Part shown: positions 13,947 to 45,261 of the stretch, in pieces | How the letters are laid out: each line of letters opens with the position of its first letter | How positions within the stretch are numbered: position 1 is the stretch's first letter | DNA from: a phage | NCBI GenBank assembly: GCA_037574385.1 | Contig: GCA_037574385.1_4529.1 | DNA: 64,000 bases | Reading direction: 5' to 3' (one strand) | The notes under the pieces: generated by a model | Told to the model about the DNA's origin: nothing | The model's database searches: none | What the model saw: only the letters and a program-made list of their open reading frames with translations | Translations under genes and position numbers: made by a program

Positions 13947-15047
13947 TTACGCTGTGAAGATTTTATCCCACATTGCAACAACTGCATCTCGGTTATACTT
14001 CTTCCATACTGCTTCAGCACGTTTAACTCGAGCTTCGTATGTGTCAGTGAATTCTAATACAGCTTTTGTGTAAAGCGCAACTACTTCTTTCTTAGGAGTA
14101 GAGGAATCAATTTCTACACGCACAGTATCTGGGTCATATTCGAATGTCGCATGCGGATAATCCTTAAAAACTAACTGAATTACAGGGACACCTTTAGAAA
14201 TGGCTTCAATAGAACTATTCTCTACCGTACCTGTGTCAGGACACGTATTAATAAGTGCTTTAGCTGTTTTAAGACGTTCCATAATTTCACTGTGTGGAGC
14301 ATCAATAATAACAGGATACTTAGCCGGTGGTGCCCATTTACTAGGACAGTATCCTGCGCCATTTTCGCCTAGTGCTTTAATCGCTTCAAGAGCAACATCA
14401 GTACGACGCATTTTAGTGTCATAACGTTGTGCACTAATAATCAGATCAGTCGCCGGAAGAACTTCAGGTTTCTCATTCAAACAAATAACCGGATAATCTT
14501 CGGCTTCAAACAACGGATTTGCTCGCCAATAATCATAATCAATTTTGTCAGTCAGACCTGAAGTCATATAACAATATTTGCGTTCAAATTCACGGAAGGC
14601 TTTAGTAGGAGCATAACTCTTACCACCGTTCTTATGAATTTGAATAGTCTGGTCCCAAATTTGAACAATGCCACGAGATACCGGCTCAAACGGTGTTGCC
14701 ATAAAATTCTTATGAACTTTAGAGAGACCTGCGTCTTTAATTGCCTGAACGGTTAGTTTAGTCGGTTCCATTGTAACAACGAAATCGTACTCATTAATGC
14801 CGGCTAGTTCAACAATCTTACGAGCCATAGTATAACTCATACCTAGACTGAATTTAGTCAGATGACCAACAGGATGATGATTAACCTTCCAATCACCAAA
14901 CGTGTCATTATCAAAGCCGATATAATCAATATCAGCACCGATGGACACAAGATATTTCAACACATTTAAATGTACTGCTTCAAGACCACCTTGTACACGT
15001 TCTGGGTTAAACGGGACTGCGCGAGATGGGATAAACATAACTTTCAT
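13947..15047 (-). CDS. GT-B fold glycosyltransferase (candidate DNA sugar transferase)
   Basis: 366 aa; N-terminal Rossmann segment and C-terminal ENSSIEAISKGVPVIQ resembling the GT4 E-x7-E donor-binding motif; occupies the rIIA-39 gap. Confidence 0.55.
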   Translation of the reverse strand: MKVMFIPSRAVPFNPERVQGGLEAVHLNVLKYLVSIGADIDYIGFDNDTFGDWKVNHHPVGHLTKFSLGMSYTMARKIVELAGINEYDFVVTMEPTKLTVQAIKDAGLSKVHKNFMATPFEPVSRGIVQIWDQTIQIHKNGGKSYAPTKAFREFERKYCYMTSGLTDKIDYDYWRANPLFEAEDYPVICLNEKPEVLPATDLIISAQRYDTKMRRTDVALEAIKALGENGAGYCPSKWAPPAKYPVIIDAPHSEIMERLKTAKALINTCPDTGTVENSSIEAISKGVPVIQLVFKDYPHATFEYDPDTVRVEIDSSTPKKEVVALYTKAVLEFTDTYEARVKRAEAVWKKYNRDAVVAMWDKIFTA

Positions 15048-24217: not shown

Positions 24218-24274
24218 TTAGGTTTCTCCTGTGGTTGATAAAGGTATAGTATCATCGTCGGTAGAGTTTGTACA

Positions 24275-25888: not shown

Positions 25889-25964
25889 ATTGTTCTCCTC
25901 TTGAGTAGGTAAGAATATCTTAACACAGTTTTTAGTGGTTGTAAACTCTAGAAACGAAAAAAAA

Positions 25965-25986
25965 AAGGAATCCCGAAGGATTCCTT
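25965..25986 (-). terminator. rho-independent terminator after soc
   Basis: Minus-strand RNA AAGGAAUCC-UUCG-GGAUUCCUU followed by U9. Confidence 0.7.
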
Positions 25987-25993
25987 AAATTAT

Positions 25994-26230
25994 TTAACCG
26001 CTTACTGGTGTAGGGGTAAACATTGCGGCGTTCTTAGTTTTCCAAGTTGCTGCATCAGAAACGACATCAGAATAAGCTGCCTTTTCTGATGGAAAGATTT
26101 GGTAATGAGAATCTGCAATCCGATGTTCGTTTGAATAAATCTCAAACGGAACAGAAACTTCCATACCTTTAACTTCTTTACCTTCACCAGCTGGATGCGT
26201 GAAGGTTTTGATATTAACGAAACCACCCAT
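25994..26230 (-). CDS. soc: small outer capsid protein Soc
   Basis: 78 aa; ...VNIKTF......KEV.GMEVSVPF.IYS..H.I...HYQIFPSEKAAYS.V... matches T4 Soc. Confidence 0.9.
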   Translation of the reverse strand: MGGFVNIKTFTHPAGEGKEVKGMEVSVPFEIYSNEHRIADSHYQIFPSEKAAYSDVVSDAATWKTKNAAMFTPTPVSG

Positions 26231-26261
26231 AATAAACTCCTTTGTTGTTTAATTACAGGTG

Positions 26262-26269
26262 TATTTATA
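26262..26269 (-). promoter_or_regulatory. late promoter TATAAATA upstream of soc
   Basis: Plus-strand TATTTATA = minus-strand TATAAATA ~32 nt upstream of soc ATG. Confidence 0.6.
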
Positions 26270-26271
26270 AC

Positions 26272-26553
26272 TTACAATTTAGCAGCTTGGACTGCTTTAT
26301 TGGCTTCAGTCATTTTAGCTAGATTTTCAGCAGTAGGATTAGCAATGTATTCGGCTGTAGCTTGAGCAAAAACATTATGAGTTTCGATTACATTTTTAGC
26401 ATTTTCAGTATTCATATCAATTTCTTGTTTAGATAAATTTTTTAGTTGATTGGCTAAGAGTTCTACAAAGATTTCAACATTAGCGTTTTCAATTATAGCA
26501 TTAATATGCTTCTTACGAGCTTTCTTAAGCTGACGTTTATTTAAACGAGACAT
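26272..26553 (-). CDS. hypothetical protein (93 aa)
   Basis: ORF between 56 and soc. Confidence 0.5.
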   Translation of the reverse strand: MSRLNKRQLKKARKKHINAIIENANVEIFVELLANQLKNLSKQEIDMNTENAKNVIETHNVFAQATAEYIANPTAENLAKMTEANKAVQAAKL

Positions 26554-27089
26554 TAATAACCTCGGTCCTGACGAGCAAAGTTCTCGGCGTTTTTCAGGTA
26601 ATACAGTTTAAAGATTTCTTCTGCAGTCAGTCCAAGGCCATGGAACATATTCAGAACAAAGTGGAGGATATCAATCATTTCGAATTTAATTTCGAGCTGG
26701 TCTTCAGGAGACAACTCATCAATACGACGATTACGGAATTCAGCATGTTGTACTTTCCAAGGCTTCCATACACTGCTGGCAGCTTTTTCACCATTGCTCA
26801 TACCACCAAGTGAAGTCAGCAGTTCACGGAATTCATCATCAATATAATCTTTCTGATTACGCAGCCAATCAACAACATCGCCAGCAGTGGCCAATTCATC
26901 AGGATGTTTGTTATGTTCAGGCTTGTCATTTGCCAGACGAACCTGTAAAGATTTCTGCATATCAAGCATAACTTGCAGTGGGTCTTTATCTTCGTGAATC
27001 AGAGCATTAAAATAAGCTTCTTCTGCTTTATCAACACCAGAAATAAGTTGTGAACATTCGTTAAAGTGTGCCATTATTTTTCCTTTCAA
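26553..27089 (-). CDS. 56: dCTPase/dUTPase gp56 (MazG-like); probable start at MAHFNEC (~27074)
   Basis: ...MAHFNEC..LI.GVDKA......DPLQVMLDMQ..LQ.RLAN......DVV.W.R.QKD.IDDEFRELLTSLG...EIFKLYYLKN.ENFARQDRGY matches T4 gp56. Confidence 0.85.
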   Translation of the reverse strand: MKGKIMAHFNECSQLISGVDKAEEAYFNALIHEDKDPLQVMLDMQKSLQVRLANDKPEHNKHPDELATAGDVVDWLRNQKDYIDDEFRELLTSLGGMSNGEKAASSVWKPWKVQHAEFRNRRIDELSPEDQLEIKFEMIDILHFVLNMFHGLGLTAEEIFKLYYLKNAENFARQDRGY

Positions 27090-27163
27090 TTCAGTAATAA
27101 GTGAGTTAATTCTAACATTAATTTTATAAAGCGTAATAAATAATAGGTAACTAAGGAGATATT

Positions 27164-27361
27164 ATGTTTAAACTTCCATCGTTAATCAACGCTATTAAAG
27201 GCAATAAAAAGAAAACTGCTATCGCTGCAATAGTTGTAGGCGGCATTATTTCATGGAACTTCGGGATTGCACCATTGTTAGTTGCCCATGGTGTTATAGT
27301 TCCTTCTGTTCCATTGGATACTGTAGTTGATTTGGCCTTTGCTATTATAGGGCTTGTTTAA
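27164..27361 (+). CDS. small membrane protein (65 aa), lone plus-strand gene between 56 and 61
   Basis: AGGAG 6 nt upstream of ATG; KKK then hydrophobic TM stretch; only plus-strand ORF with a good RBS in this early region. Confidence 0.45.
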   Translation: MFKLPSLINAIKGNKKKTAIAAIVVGGIISWNFGIAPLLVAHGVIVPSVPLDTVVDLAFAIIGLV

Positions 27362-30114: not shown

Positions 30115-30363
30115 TTATTCTTTTTCGCGAATAATAATTACTTGTTGAGGCTGCTGAGCAGATTTCTTTTCGGCAACGATAGACCAAATTAAAGTTCCAA
30201 TCCAACCAACCATCGTCCAGTTAAAGAGCAAAGATACAAAGAAGATTGCTGTTGTGCTTTTTGTGCCACGAATAAGTGCGATTACCCAAGGCAACATGTA
30301 AATGATGATTGAACCAATACCTGCGATTAAAACTGCTACTGAACTAGCTACGAATAATTCCAT
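30115..30363 (-). CDS. small membrane protein (82 aa, two TM segments)
   Basis: Hydrophobic ORF in operon orientation. Confidence 0.5.
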   Translation of the reverse strand: MELFVASSVAVLIAGIGSIIIYMLPWVIALIRGTKSTTAIFFVSLLFNWTMVGWIGTLIWSIVAEKKSAQQPQQVIIIREKE

Positions 30364-33337: not shown

Positions 33338-33700
33338 TTAAAAGAATTTAAATTTTTTCTTGGTTCGTTCATTAAAAGCTTGTTGTACCTGCATTGTAAC
33401 ACATTTTTCAACATGCGGCGCAAGTTCTGCTTTTCTGTCCTGGTCAAGAACTGCAAAGTCCATTACGATTTTACCATCAACCCAATCTAGTTTTGTAATA
33501 TAGACTATATGATGGGAGCCGTCTTCAAGTGTAATCAGAATCTCTTGAATGACATTTTCCATTGCTGAACGGATAATTTTAAGAGATTCATTAAACACTC
33601 GTTCTTTGCGAATGTCTTCCCCTTCCGAAGAAGGGGATTCATCAACGATTTCTAGATTCAAATCATCGAGATTATTCATCGAAATCTTCCATTTCGTCAA
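33338..33700 (-). CDS. 40: gp40-like protein
   Basis: 120-aa ORF between uvsX and 41 as in T4. Confidence 0.6.
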   Translation of the reverse strand: MTKWKISMNNLDDLNLEIVDESPSSEGEDIRKERVFNESLKIIRSAMENVIQEILITLEDGSHHIVYITKLDWVDGKIVMDFAVLDQDRKAELAPHVEKCVTMQVQQAFNERTKKKFKFF

Positions 33701-34844
33701 GGTCGTTTTCTATATCTGCTGCAGATGGAGCATCAGAAGCTTTAACCGGAACTTTAGTTGTTGCTTTGCAATTAATAAGGTCGTTAACAGCGTCATCAAC
33801 TTCTTTAATAGAAGAGATAGCACCTAGTTTATATTTAGTTTCAATTGCATCTCGGAAAGGTTTGTGTTTAAACAACGGTCCCCAGAATTCTACACAATCA
33901 GTAGCTTTAGCACGCCATGATTTCTCTTCACGAATCATTTCGCCTGTTTCTTCGTCAAGGAATTCGCGAGCATACCACCCAGCTTTAGGCTTAACTACAA
34001 AACCAATTTCGGTTGCCATTTCTAGCAAGCCACTGAATGGGTCGATACCGCCATCAAAATTAACCGTGATCGGGAAAGTAGATTTCTCTTTAACTGTACG
34101 AGATTTTTCTGCTTTCAACGTGAAGTCATAACCGGTCAATTCTGTACCTTCTTTAACCTGACGTTTAGAGATAAAGAATACAGTGTTAGCAGAGTAAAGA
34201 ATACCTGTACCACCGCCCATAATCTCTTTAGGATATAGTCCGCCGATTTCCATTGCGGTATGGTTGATTGCAACACACGGAATATCTTTAATAGTCAGAT
34301 AAGGAGTCACAATGCGGAAAAGAGATTTAAGTGCCTTAGCACGAGACATATCACCTACGACTTTCTCGTTCAATGCATCTTCGGTTTCTTTCTTAGATGC
34401 AGTATTACCGATTGAATCGATAAAGATAATAACTTTATCACCGCGTTCAATTGCATCAAGCTGATTAGTCATATCAACTTTAAGTTGTTCGACAGACTGA
34501 ATTGGTGTATGAACTACACGGTCTAAATCAACACCCATTGAACGAAAATAAGATTCTGAAGCACCAAATTCCGAGTCATAAAACAAACAGATTGCATCTT
34601 TATATTTCTTCATATACGCTGCAACCATAGTCAGCCCAAACAATGTTTTAAAATGTTTAGAAGGTGCAGCAAAAATAGTCAAGCCTGATTGCAATCCTGC
34701 ATTCAGAGCACCACCTAGTGCAATATTCAACATCGGAATACGAGTAGGGACTTCATCACGATTATTAAACAGCTTAGACTTAGTCAAGTCTGCAGTCATT
34801 TTAGAAGTAGAAGCTTTAATCAGACGAGATTTTAAATCAGACAT
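33672..34844 (-). CDS. uvsX: UvsX recombinase (RecA-like)
   Basis: 390 aa RecA-fold ATPase with acidic C-terminal tail; matches T4 UvsX. Confidence 0.95.
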   Translation of the reverse strand: MSDLKSRLIKASTSKMTADLTKSKLFNNRDEVPTRIPMLNIALGGALNAGLQSGLTIFAAPSKHFKTLFGLTMVAAYMKKYKDAICLFYDSEFGASESYFRSMGVDLDRVVHTPIQSVEQLKVDMTNQLDAIERGDKVIIFIDSIGNTASKKETEDALNEKVVGDMSRAKALKSLFRIVTPYLTIKDIPCVAINHTAMEIGGLYPKEIMGGGTGILYSANTVFFISKRQVKEGTELTGYDFTLKAEKSRTVKEKSTFPITVNFDGGIDPFSGLLEMATEIGFVVKPKAGWYAREFLDEETGEMIREEKSWRAKATDCVEFWGPLFKHKPFRDAIETKYKLGAISSIKEVDDAVNDLINCKATTKVPVKASDAPSAADIENDLDEMEDFDE

Positions 34845-34943
34845 TGTATTTTTCCATAGGCATCATTATATTTTACTCATGTTTAAAAGATAAGATGATT
34901 ATATACTAAGAGTTATACAGCATTTAAAACTTTAAACAGGCTC

Positions 34944-35492
34944 TTAACGAGCCCATTTGATAATTTCTGTAATCAAATTATTACGTTCGCTTGCATTAAA
35001 TCCTATAACTTTGTTAGCACCATCATGATTAAGTAATTGATACGTTTGGATTTTGTTATGAATTGCAAACTCTTCAAAATGTGAAATGACTGTATTAAAA
35101 CCGAATGAAGACAAAGTAATAAGGTCGTCTTCAAAACTTTCAGTCATTTCGTTACGTGTTAAAATAATTGTGAACACATCATGGTTTTGGCAAAGACGAA
35201 TATAATCCTGTTCATAAACGTCAAGAACCGAGTCCGCATCTTGTCGAATACGTCCATAAACCCAGTTACTAATATATCCACGGTCTAATAGATAAATCTT
35301 AGTAGGGTCTAAATAATTCAACATCGTTTCGAAACAGCCAACTTCATTTCGAGACTTAACATCGAAACGCCCATCAACTGTTCGTTTAGGGAAATCAATC
35401 TTTACATATCTTTCACTAATTTCCATTATGTCATTAATGAAAGTTGTTTTACCAGCATTATCCGGTCCGTCTACTAAAATAATTTTAGCCAT
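34944..35492 (-). CDS. P-loop kinase (NMP-kinase/gluconokinase-like fold), substrate unknown
   Basis: 182 aa; Walker A LVDGPDNAGKTT at residues 5-16 and a later hhhhD Walker B-like segment. Confidence 0.55.
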   Translation of the reverse strand: MAKIILVDGPDNAGKTTFINDIMEISERYVKIDFPKRTVDGRFDVKSRNEVGCFETMLNYLDPTKIYLLDRGYISNWVYGRIRQDADSVLDVYEQDYIRLCQNHDVFTIILTRNEMTESFEDDLITLSSFGFNTVISHFEEFAIHNKIQTYQLLNHDGANKVIGFNASERNNLITEIIKWAR

Positions 35493-35493
35493 T

Positions 35494-36393
35494 TTATTCC
35501 TCGATTACGACATCTTCGTATTTAGGTATATTATACGGTGAAGAAATTAAAGCATTAAAGTAGATGAACTCACCAAGACCTGGATGGAATACTTCTTCAG
35601 GATTTTCGAAATATTGAATCTTCGGACGTCCTTTAAGAATTTGATAGTACTCAGTTTTAGTTGGTTTAAAAATTCGAATCAGCGCTTCTTCAGGGTACTT
35701 ATTTCTGTCGAAGCTAATATTTGGATCTGTTATATAAAGCGGTTGGCCTAATTGAATTGCACATTCAACCACTTGTTCAAAACGATAGCACGGGTCACTA
35801 ATTCGAAATGGATGAAAAATACCATCTAGATGAATAGGAGCCAAATCACCTACAAGACGCTGCATGATGGAAGGACGTATAACTTTCTGCGTTACGATAA
35901 TCTTATTACCATCTGCACCTGCGTTAACCAGCACTTCCTTTTGACGTTCATTCAACACAGTAGTTTGAAGTGAACGATTAACCGACAACATATCGGTTTT
36001 TAAGAATTCATCAATATAAAAGCGTGGTTTATTAGGGTCTGTAGTGATATTGAAATTGAATTCCACATCAAAAGCGCCATCATATCCAGTGATATCTGTG
36101 ATTAGAAAATCACAATCATAATAAGCAATTAATGAATCAACCACAAATTCATTTTCAGACCAGAAATATTTACGAGTGTTATACGCGTTATCTTTATACC
36201 ATAATGGAACAAACTTAAATTCCGGGAAAAGACGTTCACATTCTTTAATATCAGATGCATTACGTGGATATGTAATCACATCACCCGGATTAGCACGGTG
36301 CAAATGAAGTTGGAAGTTGCCATCCTTAAGGATAGCATACTGTCCAGTTTCATAAGACCGCATACTCAAGATTGGTACGCGGAAAATAGCCAT
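35494..36393 (-). CDS. hypothetical protein (299 aa) at the position of T4 beta-gt; candidate transferase
   Basis: No motif recognised; placed between uvsX and the hydroxymethylase where T4 encodes beta-glucosyltransferase. Confidence 0.5.
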   Translation of the reverse strand: MAIFRVPILSMRSYETGQYAILKDGNFQLHLHRANPGDVITYPRNASDIKECERLFPEFKFVPLWYKDNAYNTRKYFWSENEFVVDSLIAYYDCDFLITDITGYDGAFDVEFNFNITTDPNKPRFYIDEFLKTDMLSVNRSLQTTVLNERQKEVLVNAGADGNKIIVTQKVIRPSIMQRLVGDLAPIHLDGIFHPFRISDPCYRFEQVVECAIQLGQPLYITDPNISFDRNKYPEEALIRIFKPTKTEYYQILKGRPKIQYFENPEEVFHPGLGEFIYFNALISSPYNIPKYEDVVIEE

Positions 36394-37109
36394 TAGTCAA
36401 GGAATCCTTTAACATAATCAAAATCACGTTCAAACACATGGGCACTTACCATGGTATGAGTATAATCACCAACTTCTACACCGCATTCGTTAGCGATATA
36501 ATGAAGTAATTTTCCTTGGAGATAAAAATCCAACTGCATAACAACAGCACAGTTCTGAGAACGCATATGGCAGTGCGTATAAAGCTTACCATCACGAATA
36601 TAATAAGTAACTGAGTCAGTACATGGATATTCAAGCGTTTCGTCTGAATCAAGCAAAGCCTGATCAGAACTTTCTAGAATTTGGAACACAACTCTTCGGG
36701 AGTTAGGCTTCTCTTTAAGTTCTTTTAGAAGAGCTGGTAATTGGGCCGCAATGCGAGGACCATAGAAAGTGTTGAAGTTCGCCGGCAAAACATCTGATTT
36801 TGGTTTAGAAATAAATTTAGCGACATTAGGATATGCCTTAAACGCTTCTTCTGCGTTGGTACCACCAGAAATCATAAACTTCCAGAAGTCTTCGGCATAT
36901 TCATAAGAGATGCGGTTAATACGTGGGTCGGTCATTTTGAATGATGATGGAGTGTCAACAACTACTGTCATAGACCCAATTTCATTACAACGTCCAATAC
37001 GAGAATCAGTTACGAATTCCGGGTTTTCTAAAATTTCACGATTGACTGCTTTAAATGCGGTTTGAAAATCTGCGGCTTTGATATATTTCATTGTGTTATG
37101 TTTTCCCAT
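36393..37109 (-). CDS. thymidylate-synthase-family pyrimidine nucleotide hydroxymethylase (divergent gp42-like)
   Basis: 238 aa; SRRVVFQILES, EYPCTDSVTYYIRDGKL and VSAHVFERDF align with TS / dCMP-hydroxymethylase motifs (catalytic Cys in PCT). Confidence 0.6.
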   Translation of the reverse strand: MGKHNTMKYIKAADFQTAFKAVNREILENPEFVTDSRIGRCNEIGSMTVVVDTPSSFKMTDPRINRISYEYAEDFWKFMISGGTNAEEAFKAYPNVAKFISKPKSDVLPANFNTFYGPRIAAQLPALLKELKEKPNSRRVVFQILESSDQALLDSDETLEYPCTDSVTYYIRDGKLYTHCHMRSQNCAVVMQLDFYLQGKLLHYIANECGVEVGDYTHTMVSAHVFERDFDYVKGFLD

Positions 37110-37151
37110 GTTTACCTCAATACAATTTATTATATACTCAATTCGTAAAGC

Positions 37152-37391
37152 TTATTTGAATTTCTTGACAATGTTGATATAACGTAAAGCTTCAGCATCG
37201 ATACTTCCAAGGACACTATGAAGAAATGCATCAGCGTAGTATTCCAATTGAATAGGTTCTTTAATCACTTTAGCCGCTTTGGTTTCAAACAGGCCCATCA
37301 GGGCCTTTTTAAGAATTTGTTCGTTGCTGTTAATTTTCGTAGTCAAAATCTCTTCATTAAGTTGGTGGTTAAAAGTTTTTCTAGAAATCAT
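37152..37391 (-). CDS. hypothetical protein (79 aa)
   Basis: ORF within the cassette. Confidence 0.45.
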   Translation of the reverse strand: MISRKTFNHQLNEEILTTKINSNEQILKKALMGLFETKAAKVIKEPIQLEYYADAFLHSVLGSIDAEALRYINIVKKFK

Positions 37392-38563
37392 TCCGGGTAC
37401 CTCAAAGCGTCATCAGAGTTAGTTATATCAATAATAGATATAGAGTTTTCTGCTAACCCATTTTTAGATAATTGACGTTTATAATATCTTTCACAATATG
37501 TACACGTTGACCCACAGATTTCATTAGCACAATCAAAATCAGGATGTCTGAACCACCTTTTTTCTAAAAAGCCATCTAACAAAGAGGTTTCAATATTTAC
37601 TGTATGTGAAAACTCAGTCTCATTTTCAAGAGTGAAAATAGTCTCTAAAGGCTTCCACAGTTCTAACAAATTACCTTCAAACTTTTCAGAAGCGTATGCT
37701 TCAAGAACTTTCAAAATGTAGTCTGTGCTACCTGTACGTCCTGAAACTTTGAATTGAGTGATACCAATATCATTATAAAGTTTCAAATCTTGAGGACGAA
37801 CAAAACGAGTTCTCAACCAGTTAAATGGGTCTGTATCACGAGCTTTAATACAGTGCTGCATTGGATATCCATTTAAGGATTTAGCATCATCAGCTGTAAC
37901 ATCAGTACTATGGAAAATATAGCAAGAGTCACGATAGCTACAATGTGTTGTATACCCTTTACCAGCATTAGAACAGAACTCATTTACAAGAACTTCAAAT
38001 ATTATATTGTTCTTATTGCAAAACTCTGCTGCACGCTTCAGGAAAGAAACTGAACGGTTCTTATGAATTCCACAGCAGACCTTTTTGATATTATATTGGT
38101 CATGCAAGTATTTGATTTGAGTTACGGCATCGACATGTAGAATTGTTGAAACTTCAATCTCAATATCTTTATTGACTTCACGAACAATTTCCATAACAAC
38201 AGGGTTAGCGATAGTAATACGCCATACGCCTATTGACCAAAGATACTGAACATAATCCTGAATAGCTTTCTTCTTCCACTCAACTAGTTCTCTTTTTGAA
38301 CCAGGATTTATCGTGTTGAGTGTATAGTTAAAGCAAATACCTAATTCGTTACAACGTTTAACGTAGTCTTCTAACATCTTTTTGTCAACGTCAGGAAGCC
38401 TAAAATCAGGTCTGGCTGCTACAAAAGCCATTTCTCTTGTAGAGCCATATACTTCGTTTATCAAGCTATTAGGATAGGTTTTATTGAGCTCTACGATTTT
38501 ATCAAGAAGAGCTAAATCAAAATTCGTTCCGATTTTAAAAGTATTCATTTTTTTGCATCTCAC
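37388..38563 (-). CDS. Cys-rich hypothetical protein (391 aa), possibly metal/Fe-S binding
   Basis: Several conserved-looking Cys; C-terminal C-x4-C-x3-C-x2-C (CANEICGSTCTYC). No family assignable by eye. Confidence 0.5.
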   Translation of the reverse strand: MRCKKMNTFKIGTNFDLALLDKIVELNKTYPNSLINEVYGSTREMAFVAARPDFRLPDVDKKMLEDYVKRCNELGICFNYTLNTINPGSKRELVEWKKKAIQDYVQYLWSIGVWRITIANPVVMEIVREVNKDIEIEVSTILHVDAVTQIKYLHDQYNIKKVCCGIHKNRSVSFLKRAAEFCNKNNIIFEVLVNEFCSNAGKGYTTHCSYRDSCYIFHSTDVTADDAKSLNGYPMQHCIKARDTDPFNWLRTRFVRPQDLKLYNDIGITQFKVSGRTGSTDYILKVLEAYASEKFEGNLLELWKPLETIFTLENETEFSHTVNIETSLLDGFLEKRWFRHPDFDCANEICGSTCTYCERYYKRQLSKNGLAENSISIIDITNSDDALRYPE

Positions 38564-38604
38564 GTTAATTGATGCGATGGTTTTTGCAGGTCTTACTTAA
38601 ATTA

Positions 38605-39006
38605 TTATAGATTCGGTTTATATGATTTAAATGTTTCGAATTCGCCTTTATTCATAAGAGCTTTGAATTCGTCAGGACGCATAGCTTTGTCGTCGATAAT
38701 CCAATCATATACTGGTTTATGTGTTAGCAAATTATGGTACTTCAAGCCAATGTTTGCCAAGTTCTGAATCAGACTTGGGAGAATGTCAATTGCTATACGT
38801 CCAGGACCTACTGACTTCATACCACGAGCAGTGTAAAGCGTTATGGTATGCCCTGCATCATACAGGGCATTAATGGCAGACACCATTTCGACGTCTGGTT
38901 TGAAGTTCACGTAATCGCGATTGTTATTCCATTCTGTGATGCAATCATCGACATCAAAACAAAGATTAAGCATGTTTTCTACACGGTGCATTAGATTTGT
39001 TCCCAT
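38605..39006 (-). CDS. small HAD-superfamily phosphatase
   Basis: 133 aa; motif I FDVDDCIT near N-terminus; later T/S and K/D motifs consistent with a capless HAD phosphatase. Confidence 0.55.
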   Translation of the reverse strand: MGTNLMHRVENMLNLCFDVDDCITEWNNNRDYVNFKPDVEMVSAINALYDAGHTITLYTARGMKSVGPGRIAIDILPSLIQNLANIGLKYHNLLTHKPVYDWIIDDKAMRPDEFKALMNKGEFETFKSYKPNL

Positions 39007-40676
39007 TGATGAGTGATATCGCCACCGATTGGACGATAAGAAACACCAGTTTCTTTATCAGTTAGTACCCATTTACCAGGATTTTTTGTAATCAGAGTAG
39101 CCGTTACAGGTTCTGCTACGTCATAACTAATAGAGCCGTCTTGAAGTACACGGCCCATGTTACGTAATTGCTTAGTTAGAAGTTCCATACCTTTATAATA
39201 TGCGGCTACCGCTTTAAGTGGATTATTCTTGAAATAACCACCTAATGCAATCCAGATAATTGCCACTGCCAAATGATGATACTCGTTAAACGAACTCATC
39301 TTTCCATATTTGTAAACTAATGGATTGATGTTAATAGTCACATTACAAGTTGTTTCATCAATAATAAACTGGCCCCAGGTCGGATTAGCGTTGAATTCAT
39401 CATAACCTGAAACAGCATAAAGCACTTTAGCTTCATCATACAATTTTGGCCCGTAAATCTTGGTTTCACCAAAATATCCACGAGGGTCGATAAACTTGAC
39501 TTCGCCGTTATCAGTAATCATAGTATTACTGAAGTTCGGGTCACCGTGAATAACAGAGTACTGTCCCTGAGAACGGTTATGATAACGAATAAGGTGTTCT
39601 AAAGCTTGTTTCAGCATTGGCTTCAGACGTCCAATCTTAGTGTAGTTCACGTGTGTGATTTTACCAAATGAATCAATCAATGGCTGAATGCTTTCACAAC
39701 GATCAATAACTTTCGTATAGAACTCTTTAGTGAAATCACGACGAACAGTTTCAGGACTTACAAAATAAATGTCTGTGTTAAATTTCAGTGCATCTAAAAT
39801 TGCATCAATAATTTGTGGACGAGCAAGACTTGATTTGGATTTAATATATTCAAATGCTGGCTTACCTTTAATGCGTTCCATTTCAAAGTTATTTTCATTA
39901 ACAGAAACTAACTGAGGAACTGAATCTGATTTCACTTTCAAATACCATGAAATCTCATCTTTTTGAAGAGCTCGACCTTGTTCAGTTAATGCGAATTTAG
40001 TTACAGTTTCTTCACCAATTTCAACCGCATTAAAACTACGATTAAGTTCACGAACTTCATGAGCTTTTTCAAGTTTAGGCATATCACCAAGGTCGATGAT
40101 ATTCATAAGCTCTGATTTATTGAATGCGCCGCTGTAAAGGAATTCTACAAAATCACGTCCTTTGCAGTATTCGTGAATTTCCTCATCAGTAGAACCCATG
40201 TAGAATTCCCAGTCTTTGAACTGATAAATTCCTACAACATTACCGCCTGTTGCACCTACATTAGTGATATTTTCACCATCGAAATTATATCGACATTCAT
40301 CACCTTTAACATAGATTGCGTTAACATTCCAAGACCATGAACCAAAATCAGGAATAATATCACACCAGTTAACAACTACGTTATGGCCGTCTAAATCTTT
40401 GTGTAATTTAGCAAGAGCATAAGCAGAACCATACGCTTCATCAACTGTACGAATAGTCACATTGAACCCTTCTTGCTCACAATAAGCTCGAACAGTTTCA
40501 GCAAATTTTGAATGAACTACTACAATAATTTCATCTGCGCCAAGGTCAGAATAAATTGTATACAAATTGCTCAGAATAGTGTCTTGTTTATAGTTCACAA
40601 GAACTTTTGGAATATGGTGAGTAATTGGATATAAACGAGTTGCCAATCCAGCACCAAGAATAACAGCTTTTTTCAT
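38991..40676 (-). CDS. bifunctional sugar-1-phosphate nucleotidyltransferase / APH-type anomeric sugar kinase
   Basis: 561 aa; N-terminal ILGAGLATRLYP (G-x-G-x-R nucleotidyltransferase signature); C-terminal HGDPNFSNTMI...KFIDPRG matching the APH/choline-kinase catalytic loop. Confidence 0.65.
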   Translation of the reverse strand: MKKAVILGAGLATRLYPITHHIPKVLVNYKQDTILSNLYTIYSDLGADEIIVVVHSKFAETVRAYCEQEGFNVTIRTVDEAYGSAYALAKLHKDLDGHNVVVNWCDIIPDFGSWSWNVNAIYVKGDECRYNFDGENITNVGATGGNVVGIYQFKDWEFYMGSTDEEIHEYCKGRDFVEFLYSGAFNKSELMNIIDLGDMPKLEKAHEVRELNRSFNAVEIGEETVTKFALTEQGRALQKDEISWYLKVKSDSVPQLVSVNENNFEMERIKGKPAFEYIKSKSSLARPQIIDAILDALKFNTDIYFVSPETVRRDFTKEFYTKVIDRCESIQPLIDSFGKITHVNYTKIGRLKPMLKQALEHLIRYHNRSQGQYSVIHGDPNFSNTMITDNGEVKFIDPRGYFGETKIYGPKLYDEAKVLYAVSGYDEFNANPTWGQFIIDETTCNVTININPLVYKYGKMSSFNEYHHLAVAIIWIALGGYFKNNPLKAVAAYYKGMELLTKQLRNMGRVLQDGSISYDVAEPVTATLITKNPGKWVLTDKETGVSYRPIGGDITHQWEQI

Positions 40677-40713
40677 GTTGAAGTCCTCATTGGTAAGTAG
40701 GTGTATTGTACAC

Positions 40714-40860
40714 TATTCTAGTTAAAGCATTCATACTTTGCCTGTAGACCAATCATAATCCATCCAATTACAAGTGTTGGAATCATTACTGGAGCCGTTA
40801 AGCTCCAGTAGATAGTCATGACAAGCATCAATAGTAAAAGTCCTATTGTTATTGCTTTCA
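40714..40860 (-). CDS. possible small membrane protein (~48 aa, below threshold); positional candidate for Imm-like protein
   Basis: Hand translation MKAITIGLLLLMLVMTIYWSLTAPVMIPTLVIGWIMIGLQAKYECFN; ATG overlaps the upstream stop (ATGA). Confidence 0.35.
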
Positions 40861-41493
40861 TTGTTCGCCTCGTAACATGGCACCTAGTGCACCGCCAGGG
40901 TGGAACTTAAGGAAATCATTAGAGGTAAATCCGCGTTCAGACGAAAGGTTGATAGCGAACGTATCGATAAGCGCTAACAACAATGTAGTGGACATAGTCG
41001 GAGCTAAAGAGTTCTCGTCAACTTCTACCGCGATACCGGTACAGAATGTATAATCAAAAAGAGCTTCGTATTCTTGTGGAATGTCAGGGTTACAATGTAA
41101 CAGAATCTGTTTAACCTGAGGACGAATCATACGAAGATGTTTAGCAACACCTATCATTTCTTCAGTCTTACCAGAACGACTGATGTGAACTAATACATCA
41201 TTAGGTGCAATGAATCCTGCATCACCGTGAGAATAATGCCCAGTGTTCAAATACATGCTAGGAATACCTAGTGAAGCAAAAGTCTCGGAAGCTTTAGTTG
41301 CGATATTAGCGTTCTTACCAACACCTGTAATAATTACACGACTTTCATAATTACTCAGTCCTGGGCGTCGAAGAGTTTCTAGAATAGCATTATAACGAGC
41401 AGGGTTTTGACTAATTACTTTGGCCATAGCGGCCAAAGAAGAAGCTTGTTTTATGATTGCGTCAATAGCGATAGTGATTGGTGTAGTTTTCAT
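40858..41493 (-). CDS. SIS-domain sugar-phosphate isomerase, D-arabinose-5-phosphate isomerase (KdsD/GutQ)-like
   Basis: 211 aa; ITGVGKNANIATKASETFASLGIPS matches the SIS phosphosugar-binding motif; single SIS domain without CBS domains. Confidence 0.65.
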   Translation of the reverse strand: MKTTPITIAIDAIIKQASSLAAMAKVISQNPARYNAILETLRRPGLSNYESRVIITGVGKNANIATKASETFASLGIPSMYLNTGHYSHGDAGFIAPNDVLVHISRSGKTEEMIGVAKHLRMIRPQVKQILLHCNPDIPQEYEALFDYTFCTGIAVEVDENSLAPTMSTTLLLALIDTFAINLSSERGFTSNDFLKFHPGGALGAMLRGEQ

Positions 41494-41533
41494 ATTTCTC
41501 TCATTTAATTAGTTTACCGTCCTTGGCATTATA

Positions 41534-44245
41534 TCAAAAATCGAACATATCGAACAGAGATGCTTTCTTCTCGTAATCGAGTTTCGCTGCTGATGTGAAT
41601 CCTTCAAGTGGTTTAATAAATGTCTTCTCAAGGAGAACCGTGTAGTCCATCCAATGAAGTACGTCGTCTTTAATTAAATCTGTGATTTCAGTACCAGAAG
41701 GCCATGCGATACATTTATCACCGAATGGGTTTCCTTCACGTAAAGGCAGAACATATACTTTTTCACCTTCTACAACTTGTGGTGCATCAATATTACCTTT
41801 GATAGCCCGGTTATACGTTAGAATTCCACGAATATGGAACGGGCATTTGGGACCCGGGAATCCACCTACATCATATTTAGCAATGTTATTCGCAGAAGAT
41901 ACCGACGCGATGCTAATATAATTCAATTGACGGAATTCTTTTTCAAACTCTTTAAAATACTCTTGTAATGATTCTTCACCTTCCTGAAGCATACGACGAA
42001 TACATTCCTTAAGAGCTTTCTGTACCGCTTTAGGAGTTGAAGATTTCTGTGTTTCGAGACCCATGATTTTGAGTTTAGGCTTAGCGTAACGAGTACCTTC
42101 CATATCCCACACGTTTAATGCATAACGTTTCTTACCAGTCCAAAATCCGCCAATACCTTTAGAACCGAGCGGAGGACCAGCGATAGCTTCTCGGTCCATG
42201 AACATCAAATGTTGCTTATTATTCATGTATTCGCACATTTCACGGAAACCTCTATCAATAGCAGGTTCCATACGTTCACGAGCGAACTTATCTAAGAAGT
42301 CTACCCAATGGTTGGTATCACGGAATTTAGATTCACCAACCTTATCAATAATTTTATCTGCAGATACATAAATGGAGTCTGTATCACCGTATAGAACGAA
42401 AGCTTCACCTTCTGTACCACAAACTTCGTTCAGATATTCATTAACTTTACGTTCAATCCACTGTAAAGCCATTTGCCCGAATGTTGTGATTGCAGTAGCA
42501 TTACGCAAATCATAATAACGGAACCAAACGTTGCCAAGTGCACCATAAAGTGAGTTGATAAGCAATTTACGGTTAATCTGTGCAGTCATACCTGCAACTT
42601 CAGTACGTTGAGCTCTAAACAACATTTCATTAAGAGATTTAGCAGACAACTTTTTAATCTTTTCTTTAATCTCGTCAGTGAAGTCGAAACGATAATCAAC
42701 ATCTAATGGTTCGTCAACAGAAAGATTAGGATTATGCAATGCCTCTTTAATTATTTCACCATTACGTTGAGCTGCAAGCATGTAACCTTTATGTTCTTTA
42801 CGCTGATTAAAGACCTTAGTGATTTCAGTTGGAACTACACCATCACGGTCTTTATAATACATCATGCCATTAGGAGAGCAACTGTACACATCTGAAGGAC
42901 GTTCAGCAACAGCGTTAATATAATCATGTAATGGAGCTACTTTAAACGTTCCTGCTATTGTTTCTGGGCTAATATTCACTTGGCGAATAATACTTGGATA
43001 CAGAGATGTAAGGTCGAAACTCATTACATATTTGTATCGATTTGGAATAGGTTCCTTAACAAAAGCGCCTGGGTAAGGTTGAACCGGGTGAGAACGACCT
43101 TGTGGAATCACCTTGTTCTGCTCTTTAAGGCTATTAAAAATAATAGCATCCCATGTTTTAATTGGGCTAAACACAGATTGAATCTGTATCTTAGCATAAT
43201 AACCCATGTCCAAACTCAAGTTGATGAACTGACGCTTAGCATCAATTTGCAATACACGATACACGTCGATAATGTTATAAGAAATATATCGTTGGTGATT
43301 GCTTTCACGAAGCTTAGAAATAGGGCCGTCATATTTCAGTTTACCAACGTTCAATTCAAATTCTGAAATGTAATCCAGAGAATACGACGGTTGATTGGTA
43401 AAAGAGAATTTTTTGTAAAGGTCAATGTAATCAAGAACAGAGATACCGAACAATGTAATGATTTCACGAGAACCATACATGTTTTCGATAACTTTAACAT
43501 GAGTTTTACGATGTGGTGATAAACGTTTCGCAGTAGATTCGCCAAAAATATTCTTGATTCGGTTATACACATATGGAATATCAAATGACTCAACGTTCCA
43601 TCCGGTTAAAATGACAGGAGTTTTCTGTTGCCAGAAGTTGAGATATTCCATCAACAATTCTTTTTCGTTATCGAACGGCATATAAATGATTTTATCAATA
43701 ATTTCGGATGGAACTTCATCACCACCTTGTTCTTGAAGCTTAGCAGCGATTTCAATAGACCATTCTTCTACATTACCATATGGAGAATTCAATAGATCAA
43801 ATACGTAAAACCTGTCGTCAATTGAGTCATAATGAGTGATAGCATCAATCGGATGTTTTGCTTGTGACGGCTCAGGGAACCCATCCGGAGATGTTACTTC
43901 GATGTCGAAGTTAGCCACACGAATTTTTGTATGGTCGTATTTGATTTCATAGTTATAAGTGTCAGACAAATACGCCAATTTGAAATCGTCCATGCCAAGT
44001 GCTTCAAGTCCGATATCTTCCATGCGTTTAATCCATTGGGAGGCATCACGCATATTAGCGAACAACTTACGAGTACACGACTTACCGTAGATATCGAAAT
44101 ATTTCGTAGCCTGACTTTCTGGACAATGAGCAAACAGTGATGGTTTATATTCTACTTCACGAGTACGTTCACGGCCATTAGAATCGATGTAACGTTCAAA
44201 AATTGAATCACCGATCTGTTCAACCGTTAAGTAAAATTCTTTCAT
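41534..44245 (-). CDS. 43: DNA polymerase gp43 (family B)
   Basis: 903 aa; exonuclease motifs, YGDTDS polymerase motif; N-terminus MKEFYLTVEQIGDSIFERYIDSNGRERTREVEYKPSLFAH... matches my memory of RB69 gp43. Confidence 0.97.
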   Translation of the reverse strand: MKEFYLTVEQIGDSIFERYIDSNGRERTREVEYKPSLFAHCPESQATKYFDIYGKSCTRKLFANMRDASQWIKRMEDIGLEALGMDDFKLAYLSDTYNYEIKYDHTKIRVANFDIEVTSPDGFPEPSQAKHPIDAITHYDSIDDRFYVFDLLNSPYGNVEEWSIEIAAKLQEQGGDEVPSEIIDKIIYMPFDNEKELLMEYLNFWQQKTPVILTGWNVESFDIPYVYNRIKNIFGESTAKRLSPHRKTHVKVIENMYGSREIITLFGISVLDYIDLYKKFSFTNQPSYSLDYISEFELNVGKLKYDGPISKLRESNHQRYISYNIIDVYRVLQIDAKRQFINLSLDMGYYAKIQIQSVFSPIKTWDAIIFNSLKEQNKVIPQGRSHPVQPYPGAFVKEPIPNRYKYVMSFDLTSLYPSIIRQVNISPETIAGTFKVAPLHDYINAVAERPSDVYSCSPNGMMYYKDRDGVVPTEITKVFNQRKEHKGYMLAAQRNGEIIKEALHNPNLSVDEPLDVDYRFDFTDEIKEKIKKLSAKSLNEMLFRAQRTEVAGMTAQINRKLLINSLYGALGNVWFRYYDLRNATAITTFGQMALQWIERKVNEYLNEVCGTEGEAFVLYGDTDSIYVSADKIIDKVGESKFRDTNHWVDFLDKFARERMEPAIDRGFREMCEYMNNKQHLMFMDREAIAGPPLGSKGIGGFWTGKKRYALNVWDMEGTRYAKPKLKIMGLETQKSSTPKAVQKALKECIRRMLQEGEESLQEYFKEFEKEFRQLNYISIASVSSANNIAKYDVGGFPGPKCPFHIRGILTYNRAIKGNIDAPQVVEGEKVYVLPLREGNPFGDKCIAWPSGTEITDLIKDDVLHWMDYTVLLEKTFIKPLEGFTSAAKLDYEKKASLFDMFDF

Positions 44246-44291
44246 TTAATTTCCTTTAGACGAGTTATTGTCTTTTGTTTGTTGATGAACT

Positions 44292-44323
44292 TATTATACT
44301 CCAAATGGGACCGAAGTCCCATT
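44292..44323 (-). promoter_or_regulatory. UUCG hairpin immediately followed by -10 TATAAT between regA and 43
   Basis: Minus strand CAAUGGGAC-UUCG-GUCCCAUU then TGGAGTATAAT. Confidence 0.5.
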
Positions 44324-44326
44324 GCT

Positions 44327-44704
44327 TTAATTACCAATTGTATATTTTGCTTTCAAAGTCCAGTCATCTTTCTGTTTAAAAGAGATAACTCGGAAGTTAT
44401 TAGTCAGGCTAAATAGATCTTCACGAGCAGAGTCTTCAATAACAATCAATCCCCAGTCTTCAAGCAACTGAGCAATCGAATCACGTCGCTGATAGTCTTC
44501 GCCGTCAATATCAACCTGGCGTCCATCCATACGCAACATTTCTTTAAAGTGGACAATATAGTACTTACCTTGCTTTTGGAGGATATGACAAGACTGGTAA
44601 AGGACTTTATCTTTGTTATTAGCGATGCCCATACGGGTCAAAGTCTCTTTGACTTTCAGAAAATCTTCAGGGTTCTTCAATTTAATTTCAATCATTTTTA
44701 CCAT
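44327..44704 (-). CDS. regA: translational repressor RegA
   Basis: 125 aa; ...[51 protein letters not shown]...[12 protein letters not shown]...KYTIGN matches T4 RegA. Confidence 0.95.
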
Positions 44705-45261
44705 TCCAATGCTAATTTTTTAAATTGTTTTTGTTCTTTCACGTTTTTGGTAACTTCTTTGAGAAATTCATCAGTGACCATGGCCTTCAGTTCTTTAAGG
44801 ACTATTGGCAACTTGTTATTTTTTTCAAGGAGCCGCTTATACTCGGTAGCATCATTCATGTTGATTGTGTAATGTTTCATCAACAGTTTGATAACTAGTA
44901 ACTCTGAAGTGTCTTCGACTAGTTTAGCCCATTTAGAGAATCGACGACCACGCGGAATTGCCGCCATCATATAGTTGAAGTGCGCTTCATCACTTAATTC
45001 AGAACCGACTAAGTTCATCATGTAAACGGCTGGCATACATTCTGGGAACTGGGATAATGAGTTCTCAACCATAAATTTTGAGTAGTCGACCTGAGCAATT
45101 GACATAGATTTCTTTTCGTTAATAGCATTAATGATTTTAAAGAATTCATTCTCAGGTTTTTCTTTAAACATATCAGCACATTTTTGAATCGCATCAGCGT
45201 CATTAGACTTCCATGCAATTTGGTGCTCGTTAAGCTGGACGTCATCATCGAATAAGTTCAT
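44698..45261 (-). CDS. 62: clamp loader small subunit gp62
   Basis: 187 aa; ...QLNEHQ.AW.S.D...FKEK.ENEFF.II.AIN.K...[25 protein letters not shown]... matches T4 gp62. Confidence 0.9.

Follow-up and report, generated by a model that had tools for sequence, protein, structure and literature searches.

The gene at 36393-37109 of the 64,000-nucleotide stretch of phage DNA analysed here (the window) very probably encodes the Mosigvirus ortholog of AfhB (RB69 gp48, 5hodCMP synthase), that is, a thymidylate synthase (TS)-fold, flavin- and O2-dependent dCMP 5-hydroxylase; judged from its sequence, the probability of this assignment is about 0.95. This type of enzyme is already known, having been reported in 2025-2026. 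The gene is an ATG-to-TAA open reading frame on the minus strand with a GAGG ribosome-binding site before the start, and its 238-aa product is covered by the Pfam Thymidylat_synt model (PF00303) at residues 122-235 only (E 2.3e-15, 56.9 bits vs a cut-off of 24.3). An earlier interpretation made from the letters alone (the sequence-only reading) had placed a 238-aa TS-family protein at this site; both the frame and the fold proved to be real, and every one of the motifs that it quoted (SRRVVF, PCTDSVTYYIRD and SAHVFERDF) is present in the protein.

The window belongs to an RB69-like Mosigvirus, and a 157-member Mosigvirus protein cluster is 100% identical to the protein. RB69 gp48 is 99% identical, with two substitutions (N85D and V107A), and AfhB of phage HY126 (sequences of PDB 9iqc, 9ir2 and 9iqu) is 98% identical, with five; none of these changes lies at a signature position, and no functional difference from either protein is expected on this comparison. 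It has been reported that E. coli DNA acquires 5hodC when RB69 gp48 is combined with a dNMP kinase, that the gp48 product is labelled by 18O2, and that the enzyme is yellow after purification, FMN being released from it (PMC13326640). The product is 5hodC and not 5hmdC, with a retention time and mass that differ from those of the T4 enzyme's product (PMC13326640). The flavin is named differently by source, as FMN in PMC13326640 and as 'riboflavin' and 'FAD' in the PDB titles. For the 98-99% identical proteins, the available evidence covers the dCMP substrate, the 5-hydroxy-dCMP product, the O2-derived oxygen, and flavin binding, and includes crystal structures containing dCMP and flavin; for the protein of the window, orthology, fold, all signature residues, and a complete gene cluster could be established from sequence.

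An alignment-based AlphaFold model, built from 48 homologs, reached a pLDDT of 88.3, whereas the single-sequence model (pLDDT 37.6) was unusable. By using Foldseek, the alignment-based model was found to match 9iqc ('Monooxygenase dependent on riboflavin with dCMP and FAD') at a TM of 0.94, and it also superposes on 9iqu ('phage HY126 dCMP hydroxylase-AfhB with substrate dCMP'), both entries having been released on 2025-07-16. After AfhB itself, the nearest solved folds were MilA (TM 0.82) and cellular TSs, many TSs matching the model at TM 0.7-0.8.

Four residues, Glu160, Cys163, Asn186, and Asp194, align to L143, C146, D169, and N177 of ThyA and are invariant in 121/121 family members (53-100% identity). 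Asn186 occupies the position of ThyA D169 and T4 D171, so that the folate-binding Asp of gp42 is absent and the protein carries the D169N signature, which has been proposed as diagnostic of 5hodCMP synthases along with N177D and L143E (PMC13326640). A check for loss of the catalytic Cys found Cys163, the equivalent of E. coli ThyA Cys146, to be kept; the gp42-type nucleophile (T4 Cys148) and dCMP-specificity Asp (Asp194, T4 Asp179) are both present. By alignment, Asp194 at the ThyA Asn177 position is the residue predicted to specify dCMP, as in T4 gp42. Further key residues are Arg138/Arg139 (phosphate) and His224. The features of the AfhB clade, namely the TS fold, D169N, the catalytic Cys, Asp at 177, an acidic residue at 143, close characterised relatives, and a cytosine-glycosylation cluster, were all found. 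The protein resembles HY126 AfhB and RB69 gp48 in length, fold, and the four signature residues, and gp80 of Acinetobacter phage DLP3 (~70% identity, Acinetobacter type) has the same four.

The window carries a complete arabinosyl-5-hydroxycytosine cluster, 94-99% identical to that of RB69 and in the same order (Table 1). The ATG of the arabinosyltransferase 1 gene and the TAA of afhB share one base (TAATG), and the gene for arabinosyltransferase 2 sits between rIIA.1 and the topoisomerase gene. RB69 gp45, the counterpart of the thymidylate-kinase-like protein, is labelled 'nucleotide kinase' in PMC13326640. The 79-aa ORF had no Pfam or NCBIfam match (Pfam searched at E up to 10); its identity as a diverged chorismate mutase was rejected, as hhalign against a phage chorismate-mutase profile gave a probability of 0.08%.

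Table 1. Features of the arabinosyl-5-hydroxycytosine pathway and its surroundings in the window.
Feature	Coordinates	Strand	Evidence
DNA arabinosyltransferase 2, 366 aa, RB69 gp3 ortholog	13947..15047	-	99% to RB69p003; role PMC13326640 Table 1
dCTPase, T4 gp56 homolog	26556..27074	-	69% to T4 gp56; pathway role PMC13326640 Table 1, RB69p028
Thymidylate-kinase-like nucleotide kinase, 182 aa, RB69 gp45 ortholog	34944..35492	-	98% to RB69p045; weak dTMP-kinase P-loop match
DNA arabinosyltransferase 1, 299 aa, RB69 gp46:47 ortholog	35494..36393	-	98-99% to RB69p046 + p047, intact here; role PMC13326640 Table 1
Predicted AfhB / 5hodCMP synthase, 238 aa	36393..37109	-	ORF; Pfam TS; RB69 gp48 99%, HY126 AfhB 98%
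79-aa ORF, RB69 gp49 ortholog	37152..37391	-	95% to RB69p049; slot of chorismate mutase in other genera
Peptidase-U32-family protein, 391 aa, RB69 gp50 ortholog	37388..38563	-	Pfam PF01136
HAD-type sugar phosphatase, AfhF ortholog, RB69 gp51	38605..39006	-	99% to RB69p051; NCBIfam capsule biosynthesis phosphatase 4.3e-13; role PMC13326640
Bifunctional arabinose-phosphate kinase / UDP-arabinose pyrophosphorylase, AfhE ortholog, RB69 gp52:53, 561 aa, intact	38991..40676	-	NTP_transferase N-terminal and kinase-like C-terminal domains; 97-98% to RB69p052 + p053; role PMC13326640
T4 42-imm intergenic relic	40728..40840	-	blastn 70.4% over 115 nt, E 2.3e-8
Arabinose-5-phosphate isomerase, RB69 gp55 ortholog	40858..41493	-	NCBIfam KpsF/GutQ 8.9e-32, KdsD 3.9e-30; 98% to RB69p055

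In a tblastn comparison of 24 T4 proteins with the window, gp42 was 24.8% identical, a similarity unlike that of the neighbouring orthologs gp43, 41, 44, 45, 62, 61, uvsX, 46, and 47 (61-86%), and all T4 proteins of the set other than gp42 were 44-91% identical. By BLASTP, T4 gp42 and the protein share 25% identity over 218 aa (E 3e-13). The remark of the sequence-only reading that this gene is far more divergent than its neighbours was borne out. It is not weakened by the 99% identity to the RB69 protein, which arises because the window itself is from an RB69-like Mosigvirus; since this RB69 protein differs in type from T4 gp42, the divergence stands, and it was mistaken to credit RB69 with a T4-like gp42.

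As to how this divergence arose, a fast-evolving gp42 ortholog or a xenologous replacement had been suggested, and the replacement is the better explanation. Sequence comparisons point to the arrival of the gene in a cassette that replaced the T4-type genes 42 and beta-gt in the same expression slot. The relic in Table 1 comprises 113 nt matching T4 26237-26349, the DNA just upstream of gene 42, and the annotation of RB69p054 reads 'similar to T4 42-imm intercistronic region'. DNA similarity between afhB and gene 42 was undetectable by blastn, while the upstream relic is 70% identical; because the relic is kept and the coding DNA is unlike gene 42, a cassette replacement would be favoured over fast divergence. 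Very fast divergence of a true T4 gene 42 ortholog at its original site, accompanied by a change of function, appears improbable, although the gene lies between uvsX and gene 43 in the slot and orientation known from T4, with a DNA glycosyltransferase gene directly after, and the BLASTP match to gp42 is significant. The AfhB-family HMM also gives the T4-type gp42 of 44RR a slightly higher score (51.5 bits) than it gives E. coli ThyA (34.5 bits), and the gene matches its neighbours in GC and GC3, so that composition gives no sign of foreign origin. However, four extra genes separate the relic from afhB, and the clade of hydroxylases that share all four signature residues was found in Acinetobacter, Shewanella, Pseudomonas, and Rhizobium phages (down to 33% identity in Rhizobium Pootjesviridae) and therefore predates the Mosigvirus/Tequatrovirus split. 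Moreover, the 60 best PDB sequence matches and the 50 best matches by fold consist of TSs and MilA, and T4 dCMP hydroxymethylase is in neither set.

The sequence-only reading had called the protein a hydroxymethylase, and this name is wrong: the 98-99% identical RB69 gp48 and HY126 AfhB make 5-hydroxy-dCMP via flavin and O2, and not via methylene-tetrahydrofolate (PMC13326640, PDB titles). If the protein were a gp42 ortholog, using folate to make 5-hydroxymethyl-dCMP as a classical dCMP hydroxymethylase does, this would explain the TS-family membership, the Asp at ThyA-177 and acidic residue at 143 as in T4 gp42, and the genomic slot, which is that of gene 42; it would also agree with several records annotated 'dCMP hydroxymethylase' and with the first report of RB69 DNA as arabosyl-hmC (Thomas 2018, PMC6024577). 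That hmC assignment is now called erroneous (PMC13390438), and the oxygen of the 5hodC, not 5hmdC, made by the 99%-identical RB69 protein comes as 18O from O2 (PMC13326640). In addition, Asn stands at the folate-binding Asp169 position in 121/121 relatives and the PDB entries describe a flavin monooxygenase. For the RB69 ortholog the hydroxymethylase function is already refuted, and for the protein of the window it is very unlikely. The suggestion of an altered substrate or product was right as to the product, 5-hydroxy-dCMP, and not as to the substrate, which is still dCMP, with Asp194 as in T4 gp42. The two enzymes share the TS fold, the Cys nucleophile, the dCMP-selecting Asp, the acidic 143 position, and a slot next to a DNA glycosyltransferase, and differ in that gp42 (25% identity) uses methylene-THF and water to give a 5-hydroxymethyl product, while AfhB has Asn at the T4 Asp171 position and uses flavin and O2 to give a 5-hydroxy product.

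The mildiomycin CMP 5-hydroxymethylase MilA (PDB 5JNH and 5B6D) is the best full-length non-TS PDB sequence match (residues 14-237, E 4e-11) and is similar in fold (TM 0.81-0.82; 23-24% identity) and in acting on a cytosine nucleotide, but it is folate-dependent, takes a ribonucleotide, and is ~80 residues longer. A thymidylate synthase converting dUMP to dTMP, which is the annotation in most GenBank records and agrees with the Pfam and NCBIfam TS models being the sole family matches, has a negligible probability in view of NCBIfam scores far below the curated cut-offs (68 bits vs 174.6, and 50 vs 108-327), the N177D, L143E, and D169N changes, the missing ThyA C-terminal folate-closing segment (the protein ends ~40 residues earlier), and the RB69 ortholog experiments, which point elsewhere (PMC13326640). 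E. coli ThyA (21% identity) is alike in its fold, catalytic Cys146, and phosphate-binding Arg126/127, Arg166, and Ser167, and unlike in substrate, cofactor, and product.

The proposed pathway would begin with dCTPase (gp56), which supplies dCMP and clears dCTP from the pool. This dCMP would be hydroxylated at C5 by the AfhB ortholog, with oxygen from O2, to give 5-hydroxy-dCMP, the TS-fold enzyme having presumably swapped its folate cofactor for flavin to act as a monooxygenase. As in TS, Cys163 may add to C6; the C5 enamine would then attack a flavin C4a-hydroperoxide, which would replace the methylene-folate iminium ion, and Cys elimination would restore the ring. Asp194 would read cytosine N3/N4, with Asn186 in place of the folate-binding Asp169. 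Phage dNMP kinase and host NDP kinase would convert 5-hydroxy-dCMP to the triphosphate, and the polymerase would incorporate 5-hydroxy-dCTP instead of dC. The 5-OH could then be arabinosylated by the two arabinosyltransferases, with UDP-arabinose supplied by the products of the isomerase, kinase/pyrophosphorylase, and phosphatase genes that lie just upstream. It had been anticipated that the base made here determines what the sugar system decorates, and this agrees with RB69-like phages, in which the 5-hydroxycytosine product is then coated with arabinose.

On the other hand, the adjacent U32-family gene raises the possibility of a second route to the same base. We tentatively propose, at somewhat less than an even chance, that AfhB is the aerobic half of a dual system and that the product of the U32 gene hydroxylates C5 of a cytosine deoxynucleotide, or of cytosine in DNA, as an Fe-S enzyme that depends on prephenate and not on O2. 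The U32 protein scores 42.2 bits with Pfam PF01136 (cut-off 22.4), and hhalign links it to E. coli TrhP/RlhA/UbiU/UbiV with 90.9% probability (E 1.2e-6, 202 columns); the link is made by profile methods only, pairwise BLASTP with RlhA, TrhP, and UbiU being not significant, and phmmer found no match in the PDB. RlhA (ho5C2501 in 23S rRNA), TrhP (ho5U34 in tRNA), and UbiU/UbiV (anaerobic ubiquinone hydroxylation) share the U32 domain and are prephenate-dependent, and the phage gene is genetically linked to prephenate supply. Many Cys are invariant in the phage protein (nine in 121 relatives: C163, 197, 208, 214, 238, 345, 350, 354, and 357), which like RlhA has a C-terminal Cys cluster. Three of its Cys align with TrhP C170, C177, and C197, and the TrhP C193 position is Pro. 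It differs from these enzymes in Cys spacing (CX10CX5CX23C plus CX4CX3CX2C vs the canonical CX6CX15CX3/4C) and in its presumed substrate, a deoxynucleotide or DNA.

Indirect evidence for the prephenate link comes from gene neighbourhoods. A type II chorismate mutase adjoins the U32 gene in all seven non-Mosigvirus phages checked (six other genera and Shewanella phage Thanatos-2); chorismate-mutase matches were found in 51 phage records, and 40/40 of those listed lie beside AfhB or the U32 gene. On other phage contigs, U32 homologs (48-58% identity) occur without AfhB beside dCMP deaminase, dUTPase/DCD, dNK, NT5C, TET-associated-type glycosyltransferase, and DAHP synthase, the last directly adjoining the homolog on a metagenomic phage contig, which would point to a broader class of phage nucleotide hydroxylases that has yet to be described. 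None of the phages of aerobic hosts that were examined carries the U32 gene. A strict tie of U32 to facultatively anaerobic hosts was nevertheless rejected, as Dhakavirus JS98 infects E. coli and lacks U32, chorismate mutase, and isomerase. A role for U32 in arabinose activation was also rejected, as Acinetobacter and Pseudomonas phages have complete arabinose genes without it; DLP3, with no U32 gene listed, makes tri-arabinosyl-5hoC (PMC13326640). A literature search found no paper on U32 or chorismate mutase in this context, and part of the idea may be published already.

The proposed pairing of AfhB and U32 would be of the same kind as TrhO/TrhP and UbiIHF/UbiUV, each an O2-dependent and an O2-independent enzyme for one reaction, and, if true, would also parallel NrdAB/NrdDG. 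An O2-requiring first step is puzzling in phages that multiply in the gut, a largely anoxic place, and the U32 gene, with the chorismate mutase of related genera, is a possible answer: if true, it lets phages of facultative anaerobes make 5-hydroxycytosine DNA there, where a flavin/O2 enzyme fails.

The main value of the AfhB identification lies in correct annotation, since public records call the protein 'thymidylate synthase', 'dCMP hydroxymethylase', or 'hypothetical'. AfhB is the founding step of arabinosyl-5-hydroxycytosine DNA, and this modification governs how coliphages that are candidates for therapy escape or set off restriction, CRISPR, and type IV systems. The enzyme, as reported in 2025-2026, is also a striking re-use of a folate enzyme fold for flavin monooxygenase chemistry.

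No tRNA or Rfam match was found anywhere in the window, and sigma-70 and terminator scans over the cluster showed no enrichment relative to shuffles. The sigma-70 scan found no -35/-10 pair on the minus strand of the short intergenic leader that precedes afhB (37110..37151). This leader contains GCTTTA (37151-37146), an 11-nt spacer, TATAAT (37134-37129), and the GAGG (37118-37115), an arrangement that we take to resemble the T4 MotA-type middle promoter consensus.

The gene afhB has a GAGG ribosome-binding site 5 bases 5' of its start, and its Pfam thymidylate synthase (TS) domain is confined to residues 122-235 (E 2.3e-15). In a tblastn comparison of 24 T4 proteins with the window, gp42 reached 24.8% identity with this ORF over 218 residues (BLASTP against the protein: 25%, E 3e-13), whereas the other 23 proteins gave 44-91%, with 61-86% for gp41, 43, 44, 45, 62, 61, uvsX, 46, 47, dda and gp39. 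The sequence-only reading had therefore correctly recognized a TS-family protein much more divergent than its neighbours, and its three quoted motifs were all found in the ORF.

The ORF encodes an enzyme other than a T4-type gp42. A megablast search with 33600-45000 returned about 150 full-length matches (97-98% identity), all of them RB69-like coliphages, and each ORF from uvsX to gene 43 is 94-99% identical at the protein level to its counterpart in RB69, the type species of Mosigvirus. AfhB differs from RB69 ORF048 by two substitutions (N85D and V107A), and the result that the sequence-only reading would have taken as its refutation, high identity to RB69/T4 gp42, rested on a wrong premise, since RB69 lacks a T4-like gp42. 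In a PDB sequence search, 9iqc, 9ir2 and 9iqu were about 98% identical to AfhB, followed by cellular TSs and MilA (E about 1e-11). An AlphaFold model (48 homologs, pLDDT 88.3) superposed on 9iqc, 'Monooxygenase dependent on riboflavin with dCMP and FAD' (TM 0.94), and on 9iqu, 'phage HY126 dCMP hydroxylase-AfhB with substrate dCMP', both released on 2025-07-16. It has been reported by Lee et al. [quoted passage not shown] The flavin-containing crystal structure of the HY126 enzyme and its in-vitro reconstitution are credited there to He et al. (Nat Chem Biol 2026). The older 'arabinosyl-hydroxymethyl-cytosine' assignment for RB69 is erroneous according to a 2026 paper (PMC13390438). The window protein is thus a near-identical ortholog of an enzyme that is already known, its activity and structure having appeared in print in 2025-2026. 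Public records name identical or near-identical proteins 'thymidylate synthase', 'dCMP hydroxymethylase', 'deoxycytidylate 5-hydroxymethyltransferase' or 'hypothetical protein', and none of the annotations seen gives the established hydroxylase function.

Signature residues point in the same direction. In E. coli ThyA numbering, N177D directs the enzyme to dCMP instead of dUMP, L143E/D marks a non-methyl product, and D169N is proposed as diagnostic of hydroxylases (PMC13326640). Based on an alignment with RB69 gp48, Acinetobacter and Rhizobium phage homologs, T4 and 44RR gp42, and E. coli ThyA, Glu160 of the window protein corresponds to ThyA L143 (T4 gp42 D145), Cys163 to C146 (C148), Asn186 to D169 (D171), and Asp194 to N177 (D179); phosphate-binding Arg138/139, Arg183 and Ser184, as well as His224, are conserved too. 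A database search yielded 379 relatives, and each of the residues named was invariant in 121 of 121 sequences (the query and the best 120 of the 379, 53-100% identity). These residues imply that AfhB shares its substrate, dCMP, with the T4 enzyme and differs in cofactor and product. Of the proposals in the sequence-only reading, the altered product was borne out by Glu160, Asn186 and the 5-hydroxy-dC formed by RB69 gp48, and the catalytic Cys, the loss of which it had named as decisive against its claim, is kept as Cys163; an altered substrate is contradicted by Asp194, and the name hydroxymethylase by Asn186 and the RB69 product.

All pathway genes described for RB69 were found in the window (see table). 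The stop/start overlaps at two junctions, afhB with the transferase gene (TAATG) and the U32 gene with the 79-aa ORF (ATGA), suggest translational coupling. Directly 5' of afhB, GCTTTA and TATAAT are separated by an 11-nt spacer with no -35 element; this putative promoter, whose first base directly follows the stop of the ORF before it, is similar to the MotA-dependent middle promoters of T4. The genes for arabinosyltransferase 1 and the kinase/pyrophosphorylase are each one intact ORF, and each is in two pieces in the RB69 reference record (p046/p047 and p052/p053), which supports the published interpretation of the RB69 splits as sequencing errors. The Dhakavirus phage JS98 has AfhB, transferase, kinase, AfhE (kinase/pyrophosphorylase) and AfhF (HAD phosphatase) homologs; it has an unrelated 166-aa ORF instead of the isomerase, the U32 gene and chorismate mutase, and its sugar, or the origin of its sugar precursor, may differ from that of RB69.

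Features of the afhB region and the arabinosyl-hydroxycytosine pathway in the window
Feature	Coordinates	Strand	Remark
Arabinosyltransferase 2	13947-15047
dCTPase gp56	26556-27074
imm homolog	30118-30363
Thymidylate-kinase-like protein	34944-35492
Arabinosyltransferase 1	35494-36393	-	299 aa
afhB	36393..37109	-	238 aa, ATG to TAA (ORF reading)
Promoter-like element	37110-37151	-
79-aa ORF	37152-37391	-	RB69 gp49 ortholog
U32 gene	37388-38563	-	391 aa
HAD phosphatase	38605-39006
Bifunctional kinase/pyrophosphorylase	38991-40676	-	561 aa
Relic of T4 gene 42-imm intergenic DNA	40728-40840		113 nt; 70% identical to T4 26237-26349 (blastn)
Arabinose-5-phosphate isomerase	40858-41493

The sequence-only reading had left two origins open, a fast-evolving gp42 ortholog or a xenologous replacement. 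afhB occupies the T4 gene-42 slot with a glycosyltransferase gene next to it, as in T4, and its base composition carried no signal bearing on foreign origin. A blastn comparison of window 34800-41600 with T4 23500-27300 gave two real matches only, the start of uvsX and the relic, a likeness also recorded by the RB69 annotators at ORF054. The T4 side of the relic is intergenic DNA directly 5' of gene 42; in the window it lies 5' of the AfhE gene, separated from afhB by four extra genes. The afhB and gene 42 coding sequences have nothing in common at the DNA level and share 25% at the protein level; non-coding DNA has therefore stayed recognizable where the coding DNA has not. Moreover, phages of Acinetobacter, Shewanella, Pseudomonas and Rhizobium have members of the hydroxylase clade whose signature residues are identical, MilA and cellular TSs are the closest solved folds once AfhB itself is set aside, and T4 dCMP hydroxymethylase was absent from the matches listed in the PDB sequence and fold searches. 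These observations leave in-place divergence of a T4-type gene 42 a small probability, and favour a swap of the T4-type '42 plus beta-gt' block for a cassette of foreign origin that uses the same expression slot. The imm homolog, which in T4 lies between genes 42 and 43, has moved elsewhere in the window.

With the AfhB finding itself known, the remaining interest lies in the peptidase-U32-family protein encoded two ORFs upstream (Pfam 42 bits), which has been listed as 'sugar or heterocycle reductase' without discussion (PMC13326640). The bacterial U32 proteins to which a function has been assigned act in hydroxylations that are O2-independent or prephenate-dependent, and some of them have been shown or inferred to be Fe-S proteins. 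RlhA forms 5-hydroxycytidine in 23S rRNA and requires Fe-S biogenesis and prephenate (PMC5727448), TrhP forms tRNA ho5U beside the O2-dependent TrhO (PMC6599085), and in the absence of O2 UbiU/UbiV take the place of flavin monooxygenases, using prephenate as the oxygen donor (PMC6747719, PMC10990095). The phage protein is 81-86% identical across eight genera, exceeding AfhB in conservation; its profile matches that of four E. coli paralogs (hhalign 91%), and across 121 relatives, the most distant at 48% identity, nine Cys never vary, among them a C-terminal CX4CX3CX2C. A gene for a genuine type II chorismate mutase lies directly after the U32 gene or at most two small genes away in seven of seven non-Mosigvirus phages examined (two Kanagawavirus, Winklervirus, Marfavirus, Bragavirus, Tegunavirus and Shewanella phage Thanatos-2; Pfam CM_2 33-47 bits, cut-off 27). 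A tblastn search with one of these mutases matched 51 phage records, and among the matches listed 40 of 40 lay in an AfhB/U32 context. In Mosigvirus this slot holds the 79-aa ORF, which is unrelated to chorismate mutase; E. coli produces its own prephenate.

A close AfhB was present in 343 phage records and the U32 gene in 222. By host name in the record, the AfhB and U32 counts were 26 and 26 for Klebsiella, 7 and 7 for Proteus, 6 and 6 for Yersinia, 15 and 14 for Shigella, and 177 and 137 for Escherichia; Acinetobacter had 57 AfhB records and was outside the ten commonest U32 names (fewer than 3). No U32 gene was found in the AfhB-containing clusters of Acinetobacter phage Konradin and Pseudomonas phage PspYZU05, or near the Rhizobium phage TS gene. 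The E. coli phage JS98 is a counter-example to this host pattern, and the Escherichia AfhB records without U32 probably include such Dhakavirus phages. Metagenomic U32 homologs (48-58% identity) were detected on phage-like contigs (L018-L023), with neither AfhB nor chorismate mutase within 6 kb. Among the genes around them are those for dCMP deaminase and DNA polymerase III alpha (L018, L020), NT5C, dNK and nucleoside deoxyribosyltransferase (L019), DAHP synthase (L021; 237 bits versus 63 for KDO8P synthase), a TET-associated-type glycosyltransferase (33.9 bits, cut-off 27.5) with dUTPase/DCD and UDP-galactopyranose mutase (L022), and a DXD glycosyltransferase, a hint that such DNA-modification modules form a broader class. 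Taken together, the conservation, profile match, Cys, chorismate mutase context, distribution and metagenomic neighbours support the phage U32 protein as a candidate prephenate-dependent, O2-independent pyrimidine hydroxylase, an anaerobic counterpart of AfhB. A literature search, with two key papers outside its reach, found no paper linking phage U32 or chorismate mutase to anaerobic hydroxylation.

Within Mosigvirus, the 79-aa ORF evolves faster (mostly 86-97% identity) than the adjoining U32 gene (about 99%). A 31%-identical homolog adjoins the U32 ('peptidase') gene of Serratia phage 92A1, and records of Yersinia and Pectobacterium phages contain matches as well.
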